Of a DNA stretch of 64,000 bases, positions 544 to 7,701 are shown one piece after another. The stretch is from Candidatus Limnocylindrus sp. (GTDB taxonomy: Bacteria > Chloroflexota > Limnocylindria > Limnocylindrales > Limnocylindraceae). The stretch is from positions 11,586-75,585 of the forward strand of contig JBBAWM010000004.1 of NCBI GenBank assembly GCA_040397175.1. Direction: 5' to 3'. The position numbers and the translations under genes were made by a program. Within the stretch, counting starts at the first letter, position 1. Each line of letters begins with the position of its first letter. The notes beneath the pieces are model-generated. The model was not told the DNA's origin. It ran no database searches and worked only from the letters and a program-made list of their open reading frames with translations.

Positions 544-572
544 TTGACCCACGGCGCGCGCCGCCGTAGAGT
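544..572 (+). promoter_or_regulatory. Sigma70 promoter of the aro operon leader
   Basis: TTGACC (544-549), 17 bp, TAGAGT (567-572); predicted +1 coincides with the ATG at 579. Confidence 0.75.
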
Positions 573-578
573 TTGGGC

Positions 579-614
579 ATGGCGAACCGCTTCTACTTTC
601 GATACCCGGCATGA
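579..614 (+). CDS. Putative attenuation leader peptide MANRFYFRYPA
   Basis: 11 codons with 4 Phe/Tyr codons in a 5-codon span, between the promoter and a terminator upstream of aroF. Confidence 0.75.
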   Translation: MANRFYFRYPA

Positions 615-660
615 CCAGCCCAGGCGCGTAAGCGTCTGACCGGCGGTCCTGCCGGGATGT

Positions 661-691
661 GAGCAGAGGGAGACCTCTGCTCTTTTCTTTT
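661..691 (+). terminator. Intrinsic terminator (attenuator) in the aro leader
   Basis: GAGCAGAGG-GAGA-CCTCTGCTC 9-bp stem followed by TTTTCTTTT, 47 nt before the aroF ATG. Confidence 0.85.
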
Positions 692-738
692 CCCCCAGAA
701 GCGGCGCCAGGGAGTCCGCCAAGAGAGTGGAGTGACCA

Positions 739-1785
739 ATGTTTGTACGAATCAACCAGTCGGCAACTGCGGAACAGATCGCGGCGATCCGTAGCCGCGC
801 CACCGAGGCCGGCCTCGCCGTGTACGACGAGCCATCGGCGCGCGGATTGACCCTCGCCCTCCTCGGCCCGAAGGGCTTCGACGAGAAGTTGAGCGACGAA
901 CTCGTGGCGATGGCCGGTGTTGCATCCGTTGCGCGCCCATCCCGCCCCTATCGTCTGAGCTCACAGGAGTTCCGCGAGGAGCCAACGGTGGTAAAGGTGC
1001 GCGATGCGGTGATCGGCGGCGGCTCACTGACGCTGATGGCGGGGCCTTGTTCGATTGAATCACGCGAACAGCTCTTCGAAGTTGCTGCAGGCGTCGCCGC
1101 TGCGGGAGCAACGCTGCTGCGCGGTGGTGCCTTCAAGCCACGCACCTCGCCGTACGCCTTTCAAGGGCTCGGCCTCGAAGGGTTGCGCCTCCTTGCCGAG
1201 GCGCGCGAGCGCACCGGGCTGCCAATCATCACCGAAGTAATGGAGCCGGCGCAGGTTGACATGGTCGCCGAGTTCGCCGACGTGCTGCAGATCGGCACGC
1301 GCAACATGCAGAACTTCTCGCTCCTCAACGCCGTGGGGCGCACGCGCATGCCAGTGATGCTCAAGCGCGGCCTCTCCGGCACGATCGAAGAGTGGCTGCT
1401 CGCCGCCGAGTACATCCTGGCCGCGGGGAACCGCCAGGTGATCCTCTGTGAGCGCGGCATTCGCACCTTCGAGACGGCGGCGCGCAACACGCTCGACCTG
1501 AACGCCGTGCCGATCTTGCGCCGACTCACGCATCTTCCAGTCATCGTTGACCCGAGCCACGCGACGGGGAAGCGTTGGATGGTTGCGCCGATGTCGTACG
1601 CCGGCGTTGCCGGTGGCGCCGACGGGATCATGGTTGAGGTGCACCCGAAGCCTGAAGAGGCCTGGTCCGACGGCGAGCAGTCCCTCACCCTGCCGATGTT
1701 CTCGCGCCTGGCTGGCGAGCTGCGAACGATTCATTCGGTCGTCTCGCCAATGCACGCGAATCCGGGCGAGGCCTCAGGGCGATGA
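739..1785 (+). CDS. aroF: 3-deoxy-7-phosphoheptulonate (DAHP) synthase, type I-beta with N-terminal regulatory domain
   Basis: [36 protein letters not shown] and DPSH motifs. Confidence 0.95.
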
Positions 1786-3098
1786 GCGATCGCTTGCGCG
1801 GCGAGCTGCGCCTTCCAGGCGATAAGTCGATGAGCCATCGTGCGCTCCTCTACGCCGCGCTCACCGACGGCGAGACGCTCGTGGTTGGCGCGGGCGACGG
1901 CCATGACGTGCGTTCCACCGCGGGCATCGTTGCCGCGCTCGGTGCCTCGGTGTCGCGCGAATCGTCCCAGCCTGGTGATGCGCCGGGCACCGCGCGTTGG
2001 CGGGTGCGCTCTGGCGGACGTGACTCGTTGCGAGCCGCCGCTGGGCCCCTCGACTGTGGTAATTCGGGAACCTCGATGCGACTCGGCGCGGGCCTCGTGG
2101 CCGGCATTTCTGGCGTGCACACACTGACGGGCGACGCATCACTACAGAGTCGACCAATGGCACGGGTGCTGGAACCCCTCGCTGCGATGGGCGCGAAGGT
2201 GGCTGGTTCTGGCGAGGCGGGCACGCGCGCACCACTCACGATTACTGGTGGTGCTCTGCGCGGTATTGAATGGGCCCCAGCAACGCCAAGTGCACAGGTA
2301 AAGGGGTGCGTGCTGCTTGCTGCGTTGGCGGCAACGGGCGAAAGCACCTACCGCGAGACGGTCGCCACCCGCGATCACTCTGAGCGCATGCTCGTGGCGC
2401 GTGGCGCTTCGCTGCGAACCTCTCGCGATGCGAGCGGAGCGACTGTTTCGATTGCCCCGAGCGAGCTTTCTGCCCTGCCGCTGGTCACCATTCCGGGCGA
2501 TCCGTCGTCGGCAACCTTCTGGCTGGTGGCGGGGAGCCTGCACCCCGACGCCGATCTGCTCATTCGTGGCGTCTCGCTGAACCCCACCCGACGCCACGCC
2601 ATCGACCTGTTGCAGCGCATGGGCGCGCGCATTGACGAGTTCCCTGGCGTCGACGATGGCTCGGGCGAGCCAGTTGGCGACCTGCGCGTGCGCAGCGCCG
2701 CCCTCCACGGCATCGACATGACTCCGACGGACGTAGCGCTAGCTATTGATGAGGTGCCGATCCTTTCGCTGGCAGCGGCCATGGCCACTGGCGCAACCAG
2801 CATTCGCGGCGCCGGCGAGCTGCGCGCCAAGGAGAGCGACCGCATTGCCGGTGTGGCCGCCGGCCTTACGGCACTTGGGCTGACGGTTTCAGTGACGGGC
2901 GACGACCTGCACTTCGTGGGTGGCGGCCGACCTACGGCTGGTTTGACCGAATCCTTTGGCGACCACCGCCTGGCGATGACCTTCGCCATTGCCGGTTTGG
3001 TAAGCGGCGCCGCCGTTTCGGTTGATGACCCTGCTGCGGCAGCGGTGAGTTACCCCACCTTCTACGACGACCTGGCGCGAATCGGGGCGGCAGCATGA
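1782..3098 (+). CDS. aroA: EPSP synthase
   Basis: [26 protein letters not shown] and DHRLAM motifs. Confidence 0.95.
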
Positions 3099-3952
3099 GC
3101 GGGCGACGGATTCTCTTGCTTGGCCACCCAGTAGCGCACAGCCTCTCGCCAGCATTCCAGCAGGCGGCGTTCGATTCGATCGGCCTGCCAGTTCGCTACG
3201 AGGCCGTGGATGTTGCACCCGCCGATCTTGCTCGCGTCGTAGCTGAGATGCGTGCAGACCCGCTGGTGATGGGGGCAAACGTCACGGTGCCGCACAAAGA
3301 GAAGATCGCGCCGCTCCTCGACTCGCTCACCGATGATGCCGTGCAGATCGGCGCCGTGAACACCATCACCCGCGCCGGAAGCCGACTCGTGGGGCGCAAT
3401 ACTGACGCGGCGGGCTTCCGCGGCGCGCTTGACGGCCTGCTCGACGGGCGACGCACTCCACGCCATGCGCTGGTGCTCGGTGCCGGTGGTGCCGCAAAGG
3501 CGGCGATCTCGGCGCTCGTGACCGCTGGCGTTGCGCAGATCTCCATCGCCAATCGCCATCTGGCGCGCGCCGAGCGGCTAGTTACCGAGGTGCGCAAGGC
3601 CTCACCACACCTCACAGTGCGTGCTGCGCCGTGGCATGAGGGGCTGTTAATTGAAGAGGCGCAGATTGCGGGGCTCGTGGTGCACGCCACCACCCTTGGG
3701 TTGAGTGACGGCGCGCTGCCACTTCCCGCAGCTGCATTCCGCGCCGGCCAGTTCGTGATCGACGTGGTCTATGCGCCGGGTGAGACGGCGCTGGTGCGCA
3801 CGGCACGCGCCGCGGGTGCCGAGGCGATCGACGGACGTGAGATGTTGCTGCTGCAGGGTGCGGCGGCGTTTGAACTGTGGACGGGGCGACCAGCCCCAAT
3901 TGCGGTGATGCGCGAAGCATTTGACACTGCAGCGAAGCACAACGCGAAGTAA
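3095..3952 (+). CDS. aroE: Shikimate dehydrogenase
   Basis: HSLSP, NVTVPHK, GAVNT, NTD and GAGGAA motifs. Confidence 0.95.
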   Translation: MSGRRILLLGHPVAHSLSPAFQQAAFDSIGLPVRYEAVDVAPADLARVVAEMRADPLVMGANVTVPHKEKIAPLLDSLTDDAVQIGAVNTITRAGSRLVGRNTDAAGFRGALDGLLDGRRTPRHALVLGAGGAAKAAISALVTAGVAQISIANRHLARAERLVTEVRKASPHLTVRAAPWHEGLLIEEAQIAGLVVHATTLGLSDGALPLPAAAFRAGQFVIDVVYAPGETALVRTARAAGAEAIDGREMLLLQGAAAFELWTGRPAPIAVMREAFDTAAKHNAK

Positions 3953-3964
3953 GGGGGGAAGATC

Positions 3965-5221
3965 ATGGCCTTTCGATTCTTGACCGCAGGCGAATCGCAC
4001 GGACAAGAGCTCGGCGTGATTGTGGAGGGGATGCCGGCGGGCGTGCCGCTCACCGAGGCGGCCCTTGAGATTGATATGCGCCGACGCCAGGGTGGGTACG
4101 GCCGCGGCGCTCGTCAAACGATTGAGCAAGACCGCGCGCGCATTCGCAGCGGCGTGCGACACGGTGCAACGCTCGGCTCCCCCATCCTGTTGCTGATTGA
4201 GAACCGCGACTGGGAGAACTGGACCAGTGTGATGCAGGTCGCCCCACTCAGCGCCGAGGAGGCGGCGGCCCTAGCCGCTTCGGCGGCTGAGGGAACGAAG
4301 CGTGCGATTCCGGTGACGCGCGTTCGCCCCGGGCACGCCGACCTTGCTGGTGCACTGAAATACGGCTTTGATGATGTGCGCAATGTTCTGGAGCGTGCCT
4401 CAGCGCGCGAGACGGCGGCACGCGTTGCCGCGGGTGGCGTCGCCAAGGCGCTCTTGAGCGCACTCGGCGTTGAGATCTGGTCGTTCACCGCCGAGGTGGG
4501 CGGCGTGGCGGTGGATCCTGCGAACTGCACGCGCACGCGCGACGAGGCTGATGTGAGTCCACTCCGCTGCCCAGACCCTGCCGCAGAGGAGCGCATGGTG
4601 GCGCGTATCGACGAGGCACGCGAGGCCGGCAATACGGTCGGCGGAATCTTCGAAGTCGTCGTCAAGGGGCTTCCCATGGGGCTCGGCTCGTACGTACATT
4701 GGGATCGCCGACTCGACACCGCGCTCGCTGGGGCGATCGCAAGCATTCAGAGCGTGAAGGGTGTGGAGTTCGGCCTGGGCTTTGAGCAGACGCGCATCTT
4801 CGGCTCCGAAGTGCACGACGTGATCGAGGGTCGCTCCCCCGACGGCAGCTGGGTGCATCGCACCAACCGCGCCGGTGGGCTCACCGGTGGCGTCTCGAAT
4901 GGCGAGCCGATCGTGGTGCGTGGCGCCGTGAAGCCGATCAGCACCCTGGCGCGACCGCTCCCATCTGCCGACCTGATCACGGGCGAGAAGGTCGAGAAGG
5001 CGCACTACGAGCGCTCCGACATCAGCGTCGTTCCTGCTGCAGGGGTGATCGGCGAAGCGATGGTCGCACTCGCCATCGTCCCGTTCCTGCTCGAGAAGAC
5101 GGGGGGCGACTCGCTTGCCGAGATTCAGGCGAACCTTGAAGCCCTGCGCGCCCGATCTGCAGCGCCACGCACTGCACCATCGGCGGGCGGCACCAGCGCC
5201 GGCTCCGGCGGCGACGACTAG
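3965..5221 (+). CDS. aroC: Chorismate synthase
   Basis: TAGESHG, RRQGGYGRG, RPGHAD and ERASARETA motifs. Confidence 0.97.
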   Translation: MAFRFLTAGESHGQELGVIVEGMPAGVPLTEAALEIDMRRRQGGYGRGARQTIEQDRARIRSGVRHGATLGSPILLLIENRDWENWTSVMQVAPLSAEEAAALAASAAEGTKRAIPVTRVRPGHADLAGALKYGFDDVRNVLERASARETAARVAAGGVAKALLSALGVEIWSFTAEVGGVAVDPANCTRTRDEADVSPLRCPDPAAEERMVARIDEAREAGNTVGGIFEVVVKGLPMGLGSYVHWDRRLDTALAGAIASIQSVKGVEFGLGFEQTRIFGSEVHDVIEGRSPDGSWVHRTNRAGGLTGGVSNGEPIVVRGAVKPISTLARPLPSADLITGEKVEKAHYERSDISVVPAAGVIGEAMVALAIVPFLLEKTGGDSLAEIQANLEALRARSAAPRTAPSAGGTSAGSGGDD

Positions 5222-5227
5222 GTTGTG

Positions 5228-6895
5228 ATGAGCGCTCCACGCGATCTTGCACTGGTTGGGCTCCCCGGCGTTGGGAAGAGTTCGCTCGGCAAGCGCTTGG
5301 CAGCAAAGCTCGGTGTCCCCTTCCTTGATACCGACCGTGCGGTAATCGCCGAAACGGGCATCAAGAACGACAGCGTTGCATCGATCTTCGAGCGCGAGGG
5401 CGAGGCGGGCTTCCGACTTCGCGAGCGCCGCCTGATCGCCTCACTCGTTGCACCTGAGCCGCCTGCCGGATCGATCGGTGCCGAGCTTGGCATCGGCCGG
5501 GTAGTGGCGTTGGGTGGCGGCGCAGCCGCTGACCCACGCAGTCGATGGGCGCTCCGCGAGCACGCAATCCTCTTCTGGCTCGACGCGCCCGACACGTCAA
5601 TTGCCCGGCGGCTGCGCACCGCGCGCGTGGTGCGACCGCTCATGAATCATGGGGATCCAACCGCAACACTCGAGCGCCTCCGCGGCGACCGTGAGCGATT
5701 CTATCGACCAGGGGTGCGCCTTCGTAGCACCCGCAGCCCCGGATCGCTCGCCGACGAGGCGATCGCGCTGCTTCGCGCCGCCGCACCATCGACGCGCCCG
5801 CTCGTTGATGCGGAAACGCTCTCCGGGCGTTGGTTGGTTGGTGACGGGATCGCTCTCGATGCGCTGCGCGCGATCCTCGCCGAGCGTGGGACCTCGCGCC
5901 TGGTCCTTGCCACCGAGCCGAATGCGGCACGGGCGTTCGCCAGCGGCCTGCGTGATGCACTCACCGCAACGGGCATTACGGTCATTCCACTGGAACTACC
6001 GAGTGGCGAAGCGGCCAAGGAGCTGCACGAGATTGGCGCGGCCGCGCAGCGACTCGCTAACGCCGGTGTGGAGCGTCGCGACCTGATCGTTGCCGTTGGT
6101 GGCGGTGCACTCACCGATGCCGCGGGATTGCTGGCTGCCCTCTATCTGCGCGGCGTCGACTGGATCGCCGTGCCCACCACACTCGCCGCGCAGGTTGACG
6201 CCTCGCTCGGCGGCAAGACCGGAGTCGATCTCCCCGAGGGGAAGAATCTTGTCGGCGCATTCCATCAGCCGAAGGCGGTCATCGCCGACCTCGCTGCGCT
6301 GCGCACCCTCCCTGCGCGCGAGTTGGTCGCAGCGTCTGCCGAGGCGGTGAAGATCGCGCTGCTCGGTGATACGCGCCTCTTCACCGTGCTCGAAGAGGCG
6401 GCCCCGCGACTTCGCTCCGGTGATCCAACCCTGCATGGCGACGGTACCCTCGCCGAGATTGTGGAGCGCGCCGGTTGGTGGAAGTGCCGCGTCGTTGCCG
6501 CCGACGAACGTGAATCGGGCGAGCGCATGAGCCTCAACCTTGGCCATACGCTCGGTCATGCGCTGGAGCAGGCGGCCGGATACCAGGATTTATTGCACGG
6601 TGAGGCGGTTGGCTACGGCCTGCGCGCCGCACTGCAGATTGGCGTGGAGCATGGGGTGACCCCCGCGGCGCTCGCCGCACGTGGCATCGCACTGCTTGAT
6701 GCGCTTGGCCTCGGTGTTGCCGCGCGCACAGAAACGGTTCCTGCCCTGCTAGCTGCAGCGAGCCGCGACAAGAAGGTGGCCGAGGCGAAGATTCGCTGGG
6801 TCCTCGCCAGCGACAACGGCTACGTTCTCCGCAACGATGTTCCTGCTAGCCTCGTCGAGCGCGCCACGGCCGCCATGCTGGCCGGCGCAAGGTAG
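5228..6895 (+). CDS. aroKB: Fused shikimate kinase / 3-dehydroquinate synthase
   Basis: N-terminal GLPGVGKS P-loop with FEREGEAGFR; C-terminal VDASLGGKTG, LNLGHTLGHALE and HGEAV. Confidence 0.92.
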   Translation: MSAPRDLALVGLPGVGKSSLGKRLAAKLGVPFLDTDRAVIAETGIKNDSVASIFEREGEAGFRLRERRLIASLVAPEPPAGSIGAELGIGRVVALGGGAAADPRSRWALREHAILFWLDAPDTSIARRLRTARVVRPLMNHGDPTATLERLRGDRERFYRPGVRLRSTRSPGSLADEAIALLRAAAPSTRPLVDAETLSGRWLVGDGIALDALRAILAERGTSRLVLATEPNAARAFASGLRDALTATGITVIPLELPSGEAAKELHEIGAAAQRLANAGVERRDLIVAVGGGALTDAAGLLAALYLRGVDWIAVPTTLAAQVDASLGGKTGVDLPEGKNLVGAFHQPKAVIADLAALRTLPARELVAASAEAVKIALLGDTRLFTVLEEAAPRLRSGDPTLHGDGTLAEIVERAGWWKCRVVAADERESGERMSLNLGHTLGHALEQAAGYQDLLHGEAVGYGLRAALQIGVEHGVTPAALAARGIALLDALGLGVAARTETVPALLAAASRDKKVAEAKIRWVLASDNGYVLRNDVPASLVERATAAMLAGAR

Positions 6896-6904
6896 GAGGG
6901 GCAC

Positions 6905-7429
6905 ATGGCGGAGATCTCGAAGCGCATCGAACTCGCGGCGATGAGCCCGCGAACGCGCGCGCATGCCGCCGGTGACGGACTCCTCATGTTGAGCGGCCCA
7001 AACCTCAACCTGCTCGGTGAGCGCGAACCAGAGACCTACGGCATCACCACCCTCGCCGAGATCGAAGCCTCGGTCGCAACCGCTGCAGCTGCTGCGGACC
7101 TGCACCTCGTAGACGCAGTGCAGTCAAATCACGAAGGCGAGCTGATCGATCGCCTGCACGTGCGCGACTACTCGTGGTTGATCATCAATCCTGGGGGGCT
7201 CACCCACACGAGCGTCAGCCTGCGCGACGCCCTCCTCGCCGTGGAGCGACCCTTCGCCGAGGTCCATCTCAGCGACCCGGCAACGCGCGAGCCGTTCCGC
7301 AGCGTGAACTTTGTCGAAGATCTCGCCGCCGTGACGGTGCGCGGCTACGGCGCCACCGGCTACCTTCGCGCTGTGGCGCTCATTGCCGAGCTGCAGAGTG
7401 CTGCGCGCGACGCGGATGGTCACCAGTGA
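6905..7429 (+). CDS. aroQ: Type II 3-dehydroquinate dehydratase
   Basis: GPNLNLLGEREPETYG, QSNHEG, NPGGLTHTS and EVHLS motifs. Confidence 0.95.
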   Translation: MAEISKRIELAAMSPRTRAHAAGDGLLMLSGPNLNLLGEREPETYGITTLAEIEASVATAAAAADLHLVDAVQSNHEGELIDRLHVRDYSWLIINPGGLTHTSVSLRDALLAVERPFAEVHLSDPATREPFRSVNFVEDLAAVTVRGYGATGYLRAVALIAELQSAARDADGHQ

Positions 7430-7701
7430 GCGATCCAGCTGCACGCCTCGCCGAGATTCGTGCCGCCATCGACACCATCGACGACCAGCTGCTGACGCTG
7501 CTCGCCGCGCGAACCGAGCTCGCCCTCGAGGCAGGCGCAGCGAAGGCGGCACTTGGTCGCGCGGTGCAGGACCCAGAGCGCGAGGCGGCACTACTCGCGC
7601 GCGTTGCGGCGCGTGGCGCCGGTGCCCTTACTCCTGAGGATCTGGTGGAGTTCTGGACGCTGCTGATGGCTGCGACGCGTCGGGCGGAATCTCAGCGCTA
7701 A
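7426..7701 (+). CDS. Chorismate mutase (type II, monofunctional)
   Basis: GTG start overlaps the aroQ stop (GTGA); LAEIRAAIDTIDDQLLTLLAAR...K...DPERE pattern. Confidence 0.88.
   Translation: MSDPAARLAEIRAAIDTIDDQLLTLLAARTELALEAGAAKAALGRAVQDPEREAALLARVAARGAGALTPEDLVEFWTLLMAATRRAESQR

Follow-up and report, generated by a model that had tools for sequence, protein, structure and literature searches.

An aromatic-codon leader with a second, overlapping reading frame precedes the shikimate operon in Candidatus Limnocylindrus and its relatives

The window, that is, the whole 64,000-nucleotide stretch of DNA from Candidatus Limnocylindrus sp. analyzed here, carries seven genes, which cover the common shikimate pathway and add chorismate mutase; a short leader precedes them (Table 1). 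The genes are tightly packed, with intergenic gaps of -4 to +12 nt and ATGA or GTGA overlaps at three of the junctions. Of 20 loci in the sister family, 19 share the gene order aroF-aroA-aroE-aroC-aroKB-aroQ, the remaining locus being cut short. An earlier note, made from the letters of this DNA, had placed the leader ahead of seven genes running from aroF to chorismate mutase; profile matches bear this out, the scores of aroB and chorismate mutase lying under the curated cut-offs. Both pheA and tyrA are present in the same genome (G000), where they appear embedded in other gene runs. On the minus strand of positions 1 to 130, a short, repetitive Lys/Ala/Arg-rich frame, histone-like by eye, diverges from the aro promoter.

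Table 1. Leader elements and genes of the aro locus, in window coordinates
Feature	Positions	Strand	Evidence
Sigma-70-type promoter, TTGACC (544-549), 17 nt, TAGAGT (567-572)	544..572	+	sequence, promoter scan, genus conservation
uORF1, leader peptide MANRFYFRYPA*	579..614	+	sequence, homologs
Sensing codons Phe-Tyr-Phe (TTC TAC TTT)	591..599	+	aromatic in 88%, 79% and 99% of 198 listed leaders
Long hairpin: P1 605-616/645-656, upper stem 618-627/632-644, loop 628-631	605..656	+	fold, covariation
uORF2, MTSPGA*, -1 frame; AUG overlaps uORF1 stop (AUGA), TAA in hairpin loop	611..631	+	comparison; translation inferred
Short linker, hairpin end to terminator	657..660	+	3-8 nt in 49/49 loci found by aroF protein
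Intrinsic terminator: 9-bp stem 661-669/674-682 (661-682), U-tract 683-691	661..691	+	sequence only
SD-like GGAG of aroF	729..732	+	sequence
aroF, class I-beta DAHP synthase	739..1785	+	NF006421, 460 bits
aroA, EPSP synthase; ATGA overlap with aroF	1782..3098	+	TIGR01356
aroE, shikimate dehydrogenase; ATGA overlap with aroA	3095..3952	+	TIGR00507
aroC, chorismate synthase	3965..5221	+	TIGR00033
aroK-aroB fusion	5225..6895	+	shikimate kinase; TIGR01357, 297 bits vs cut-off 305
Type II dehydroquinate dehydratase	6905..7429	+	NF003806 and NF003807, above cut-off
Chorismate mutase; GTGA overlap with dehydratase	7426..7701	+	several chorismate mutase models, all below cut-off

The promoter, the ATG at 579 without a Shine-Dalgarno (SD) sequence, the peptide MANRFYFRYPA, the nested hairpin, the terminator and the aroF ATG at 739 can all be read in the sequence as the earlier note had claimed. 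The promoter is the single match found by the promoter scan in positions 1 to 1200, against 0.1 expected, and the form TTGAC-17-TANNNT is kept in all 26 full genus leaders. The uORF1 start codon (579-581) lies 6 nt past the -10 box, which by promoter spacing puts the predicted transcription start at about 579; the claim of a leaderless start agrees with a distance of 6-7 nt in all 26 full genus leaders, the +1 itself being predicted from that spacing. In the wider set the distance is 9-15 nt in 152 of 192 listed leaders, and an SD-like word occurs in 1 of 166. The leader is predicted, then, to be leaderless in its own genus and to have a short, SD-free 5' leader in relatives.

The RNA from 579 to 720 folds at -76.4 kcal/mol (z = -6.41), a value equaled by 0 of 200 shuffled sequences. 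In the hairpin, the pairs read are 605-611 with 650-656, 613-616 with 645-648, 618-620 with 642-644 and 621-627 with 632-638, closed by a GTAA loop; its base begins 5 nt after the last sensing codon, and its end lies 6 nt before the first G of the terminator core GCAGAGG. At the gathering score, Rfam gave no family (T-box, riboswitch or known leader) in the window, the best E value being 3.6, and in five homologous loci it matched tRNAs alone. Small shares were present in 24 RNA runs, and contigs from the four of them that were examined cover the leader and the start of aroF (596-845, 536-1148, 327-881 and 605-983); two extend upstream of the predicted +1, and since contigs are blind to ends and strand, they lend no support. 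Directly after the U-tract lies a run of C residues (692-697), seen as CCC-C/G in 77 of 195 listed leaders and as CC-G/C in 83 of 195, which could pair with the 3' strand of the hairpin in read-through RNA.

The combination of an aromatic-codon leader peptide and a terminator ahead of the aro operon is conserved among relatives. Of 61 related genomes, 51 yielded an aroF gene, and in 47 of the 50 loci examined the full leader (promoter, leader ORF, hairpin and terminator) is intact. In one of the three exceptions there is no upstream DNA, in another the contig start cuts the locus, and the third is L013 (genome G015), in which hairpin and terminator are intact and the promoter and ATG are missing, so that the leader begins within the aromatic cluster, through deletion or misassembly. 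Candidatus Aquidulcis frankliniae (class Limnocylindria, Chloroflexota), whose aroF is 97% identical, has the same leader. With nothing but the hairpin end and the terminator fixed, two pattern scans returned at least 239 loci, at least 199 of them with the leader anchor; left out were 37 loci without the anchor, 3 failing the P1 test, the false match L190 and 3 cut at the 5' end. Merging of duplicates between the pattern loci and the set found through aroF gave 198 unique listed leaders, one of which was later judged false. Because these sequences are kin, counts over the 198 overstate independence, and 37 diverse leaders were used as a subset.

In the alignment of aroF upstream regions the aromatic codons are kept, and P1 is 92.7% paired, with 5 of its 12 pairs changed on both sides (57 sequences). 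The terminator core GCAGAGG is present in 48 of the 49 loci found by aroF protein (L009 has GCAGGGG); the GCAGAGG/CCTCTGC helix does not covary and is retained in most of the distant matches. Mean terminator stability among the 37 diverse leaders is -16 kcal/mol. The linker keeps to the range of Table 1 in the loci found by protein and spans 0-6 nt across 36 loci from other families. In L040 the spacer between terminator and aroF is 270 nt long and consists of short degenerate direct repeats, that of relatives being about 35-120 nt. Another recurring motif, present on metagenome contigs (L188, L190, L247, L279 and L289), ends in a GCAGAGG terminator without an aromatic leader.

A covariance model of the leader matched 46 of 50 other Limnocylindrales genomes, 59 of 61 genomes in family f25, 5 of 5 in f33, 4 of 50 in f4 and 0 of 49 in f3; in a draw from the whole phylum Chloroflexota it matched at most 47 of 151 genomes, an upper figure because the weak matches included (E above 1e-6) were mostly left uninspected. 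These tallies include four unpublished genomes. Three matches (L364, L365 and L402) proved to be without the element. Most matches precede aroF, and the leader also stands before tyrS (L360 and L268), tyrA-aroF (L337) and a class I-alpha DAHP synthase gene (L222); of the tyrS leaders, L268 carries Y-R-Y-R and L360 reads W-S-W-Y, a poorer fit. The same architecture is thus seen before other aromatic genes, and some genomes hold two copies. The genome of the window has one strong match only, and the two further candidates from a pattern scan for paralogous leaders were rejected, both being without an amino-acid cluster.

The aromatic codons keep a fixed register relative to the uORF1 stop (codon 0). 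Codon -5 is aromatic in 196 of the 198 listed leaders, codon -6 in 79%, -7 in 88% and -8 in 53%, with Phe, Tyr and Trp interchanging at -6 to -8. Where codon -5 is Phe it is TTT 130 times and TTC twice, and TTT makes up 4% of 943 Phe codons in the aroF genes of the same loci (24% in the genome of the window). Tyr9 of the window is poorly kept (14 of 198). This fixed register makes aromatic-amino-acid attenuation very likely, judging by comparison of sequences. The specificity for Phe and Tyr that the earlier note proposed is not supported as a trait of the family: Trp occurs in the cluster of 29 of 182 listed leaders outside the genus. Its observation that the window leader is free of Trp stands, and trpA was not detected in 28 genomes of the genus (G000 and 27 others, 54-93% complete), the sister family having it in 25 of 25. 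The genus is likely a Trp auxotroph, and the Trp-free leader fits this lack of a trpA match, as a single lineage. There is no clean link between Trp codons and trpA: in G088 and G150 Trp codons are present and trpA was not found.

Pro at codon -2 is invariant in all 198 listed leaders. This invariance, together with a terminator core that shows no covariation in 48 of the 49 protein-found loci and persists in most of the distant matches, could be taken to mean that the switch lies in nascent-peptide arrest at Pro-Ala-stop, or in a protein or tertiary RNA contact on the near-invariant GCAGAGG/CCUCUGC helix. We regard this as very improbable, as the Pro and Ala codons are fixed at the nucleotide level (CCG in 198 and GCA in 182 of the listed leaders), which is what P1 pairing demands, and the peptide past the aromatic cluster differs entirely in other families.

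In classical attenuators such as those of E. coli trpL, pheL and hisL, a leader ORF with cognate codons is followed by a terminator and by an antiterminator that shares bases with it. The earlier note had assigned this role to the segment GGTC-CTGC, pairing with GCAG and GACC inside the terminator; UGC 650-652 (and GGUC) would pair with the terminator once P1 has been opened by a stalled ribosome. In the window the required bases match (8 of 8 pairs); of 197 listed leaders, 179 allow 3 of 4 pairs for UGC:GCA and 94 allow all 4 for GGUC:GACC. In two distant loci (L344 and L362) the hairpin and terminator overlap by 1-2 nt; a 3-nt overlap suffices in C. glutamicum ilvBNC according to PMC11857589. 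The energies point the other way: the antiterminator helix costs +29 kcal/mol on ribosome-free RNA, +25 to +29 kcal/mol with a ribosome stalled on F5-F7 and +15 kcal/mol with one at the stop (13-nt cover), so that it is penalized in all states and least with the ribosome on or close to the stop codon, opposite to what control of a biosynthetic operon requires. From pairing energies, the terminator itself has a probability of 1.00 in all nine masked-ribosome states.

The 37 diverse leaders agree with this. With a stalled ribosome and a 13-nt cover, P1 is paired with a probability of 0.99-1.00, and it is lost at stops; the terminator arm is paired upstream with a mean probability of 0.01-0.19 in the stalled states and 0.35-0.39 at stops (0.35-0.52 across settings). 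If the cover is widened to 16 nt, a ribosome stalled at codon -5 opens P1 and acts like a stop (0.49), and such opening at the last aromatic codon would blur the switch. The proposed antiterminator motif is moreover altered in a clade of the genus with CUG in place of the uORF2 AUG and absent from distant families, and the recurrence of GCA and GACC simply reflects their presence in both helices. A search for helices of 4-5 bp in fixed register between the terminator 5' arm and upstream RNA found none shared by at least 70% of the sequences, a scan for alternative helices yielded P1 plus two weak, trivial 4-bp matches only, and folding, in which pseudoknots and triplexes lie outside the model, gave no stall-favored antiterminator that shares terminator bases. 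A classical attenuator at this locus therefore appears highly unlikely. In the folding model, the clean difference between a stalled and a finished ribosome is whether P1 is closed.

A different source of antitermination would be the aromatic codons themselves, which on a ribosome-free leader can extend the long hairpin by pairing 590-599 with the terminator 5' arm; read-through would then occur only on RNA free of ribosomes, for instance after drop-off of peptidyl-tRNA, and uORF2 would prolong occupancy in the fed state. Stalled ribosomes can drop short peptidyl-tRNAs. Of the states modeled, only the ribosome-free one ties up the 5' arm before its 3' partner is made (probability 0.81 in the window), and the pairing probability exceeds 0.5 in 78% of the 37 diverse leaders. 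The pairing is, however, no better than in controls: at -4.1 kcal/mol, native codon-arm pairing compares with -4.3 kcal/mol after synonymous recoding (native better in 20 of 37) and -4.5 kcal/mol for swapped leaders (native better in 16 of 37), permuted arms likewise being no worse, and codon-to-terminator pairing was rejected as a selected feature. A stalled ribosome also covers the aromatic codons, so that without drop-off starvation would not favor ribosome-free pairing. We consider this route rather unlikely.

The earlier note's reading did not include uORF2, which begins on an AUG overlapping the uORF1 stop. A NUG at this overlap is found in 194 of the 198 listed leaders, and an early stop in the -1 frame in 187, at offset 17 (167 leaders), 20 (8), 14 (4) or 5 (8); in the +1 frame, 22 of 198 have a stop before the terminator. 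The offset-17 triplets are TAG (98), TGA (51), TAA (18) and TGG (1), the last being expected 30.6 times if positions were independent; among the 37 diverse leaders TGG occurs 0 times against 3.8 expected. On a quick and partly unresolved aroF tree (116 rows) the three stops interchange at least 23 times. The 3' strand of the hairpin varies in length by single bases (22-28 nt) and the 5' strand mostly by three. From the loop stop to the terminator core there are 26-34 nt in 179 listed leaders, and in a clade that gained an offset-5 stop the loop stop has drifted or vanished. By comparison, the NUGA overlap with a downstream ORF thus bears a signature of selection in the AUG overlap and the switching of stop codons.

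Some leaders depart from this pattern. Eleven of the 198 listed rows are without an early -1 stop (one is the false match, and five keep the AUG); CUG replaces AUG in one clade of the window's own genus (7 of 198), and ACG occurs in 2 of 198, one with the stop kept. The AUG is in addition under structural constraint, because GCAUG belongs to the helix. Of 36 leaders from other families, 22 consist of a single ORF whose stop is at offset 18-24. Another 6 are split: they have the NUG overlap, and their second stop falls at the loop or shortly beyond it (one of these, L360, has its GUGA elsewhere). Of the rest, 7 stop earlier without overlap and 1 is ambiguous. The 32 unique f25 leaders comprise 21 split leaders in which uORF2 stops early, 4 with AUG and no early stop (out of 25 with the AUG overlap), 3 that have lost both the AUG and the loop stop, and 4 that are fused; the fused ones fall into two sequence types, in both of which the first stop is lost and the loop stop is shifted into frame 0. 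Split and fused leaders thus end in the same loop, which marks the loop as a conserved end point of translation. In family f4 the leader stop lies just before the hairpin (3 loci, L352-L354), and these carry a second GCAGAGG inside the 3' strand of the hairpin.

Translation of uORF2 by reinitiation is probable on this comparative evidence. Overlaps of the same type, AUGA or GUGA, also link three gene pairs within the aro operon itself. Reinitiation at the AUGA overlap of a uORF has been demonstrated in M. tuberculosis uPPE2-ppe2 (PMC11260477), where, as here, the uORF stop overlaps the downstream AUG; there it feeds ribosomes to a real gene, whereas here they would pass to a six-codon ORF in a regulatory hairpin. 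The -1 frame could instead be reached by frameshifting, induced by starvation or by the hairpin, or the loop stop could be a mere guard or relic outside the switch. The U-run 5 nt ahead of a strong hairpin resembles frameshift geometry, and pheL of E. coli is a documented case of incidental frameshifting (PMC3082878); for a guard role, a two-codon uORF2 suffices in 8 of the 198 listed leaders, and forms without uORF2 exist. There is, however, no canonical slippery heptamer, and in f25 and in 8 of the 198 listed leaders UUU-AG creates a -1 stop immediately behind the sensing codon, so that a slip meets UAG at once and cannot reach the loop, which makes reinitiation the simpler route; nor would a pure relic keep switching three stop codons while avoiding TGG. 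Frameshifting or a guard role is accordingly unlikely. In the leaders of f25 (L332 and L372-L398) and in L014-L026 the sensing UUU is followed by AG, and the resulting UAG in the -1 frame may catch slipped ribosomes.

Likely, then, the element is a ribosome-driven attenuator that would sense charged tRNA-Phe, and perhaps tRNA-Tyr, in which the long hairpin itself is predicted to act as the read-through state by crowding the terminator, not by pairing with it. As comparison shows, a short leader ORF places its last aromatic codon 4-5 nt before a hairpin that lies 0-8 nt from the terminator. The switch could then work in two ways depending on supply: (i) when aromatic aminoacyl-tRNA is short, the ribosome would stall on the aromatic codons and leave the hairpin folded, and with only 7-13 unpaired nt separating the ribosome from the base of the terminator, the latter would be crowded, so that the terminator could not finish folding inside RNA polymerase, and the aro operon would be transcribed past a sterically blocked terminator; (ii) when supply is good, the ribosome would enter the hairpin, terminate at UGA 612-614, reinitiate on the overlapping AUG and stop at UAA 629-631 in the loop, where it would hold the hairpin open about 30 nt from the terminator, just beyond a suppression range of ~27 nt, and transcription would end at about 690.

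Steric read-through is a tentative proposal, which we would rate just below an even chance, and the same holds for the model of stall, steric block and reinitiation as a whole. The E. coli terminator tR2 is suppressed by a ribosome that lies no more than about 27 nt away (PMC4824070), and in pyrBI and the tR2 distance series a nearby ribosome blocks terminator folding without an alternative helix, as proposed here; in those cases the ribosome is near along linear RNA, while here a folded hairpin would bring an upstream-stalled ribosome near. The literature searched describes no case in which a hairpin upstream of a terminator antiterminates sterically. Two points speak against the steric step: in some attenuators termination is efficient despite a nearby upstream hairpin, and pairing energies predict the terminator to form in every modeled state. 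The model also leaves the near-invariance of GCAGAGG/CCTCTGC unaccounted for. A wider reading, of phylum-wide attenuators without competing pairing in which a hairpin tethers the stalled ribosome at the terminator, and in which the split leaders (Limnocylindrales and at least two other families) make termination-reinitiation a working step, is doubtful though conceivable.

The element is widespread and seems to do without the antiterminator that underlies attenuator models and prediction tools, which would make steric coupling of ribosome and polymerase testable, and at about 110 nt the leader is small enough for reporter work. The naturally split and fused leaders offer unusual comparative evidence for reinitiation on a six-codon ORF within a regulatory RNA. 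What is new here is a uORF1 stop that overlaps the AUG of such an ORF, ending in the hairpin loop; the literature searched gave no account of the element in Chloroflexota or of a two-ORF attenuator leader, and supplementary motif tables may list it.

Judged from its sequence, the element has a leader ORF with codons for pathway end products and an intrinsic terminator, and it appears to lack the antiterminator of classical attenuators. The classical leaders (trpL, pheL and hisL, and the actinobacterial trp and ilvBNC leaders; PMC1262725, PMC11857589) share with it cognate codons near the ORF end and a GC-rich terminator with a U-tract, and C. glutamicum ilvB has a leaderless start, as predicted here; their antiterminator shares terminator bases, whereas none is conserved here. 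The Acholeplasma uORFC-13-1 motif (PMC8632094), a prediction, likewise has Phe codons in a U-run, lies upstream of aroF and adjoins an intrinsic terminator, but it has a ribosome-binding site, belongs to another phylum and has 24 representatives (other related literature: PMC4833913, PMC1173090, PMC6728339). The claim that a Phe/Tyr attenuator on a common-pathway aro operon has no precedent gives way to the F-Y-F leader before aroF in C. glutamicum (PMC4046766), named aroR, which responds to Phe and not Tyr according to Neshat et al. 2014 as cited in PMC11802643. Since leader-peptide control of aroF is known, the presence of a Phe/Tyr leader in an uncultured freshwater lineage would by itself extend it only modestly. 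The window has an F-Y-F leader directly upstream of its DAHP synthase gene, and with aroR it shares a short Phe-Tyr-Phe leader upstream of a DAHP synthase operon, at which stalling is proposed to relieve attenuation; set beside the window by description, aroR differs in belonging to another phylum and in its reported response to Phe and not Tyr, and the published passages on it mention no AUGA-coupled second ORF.
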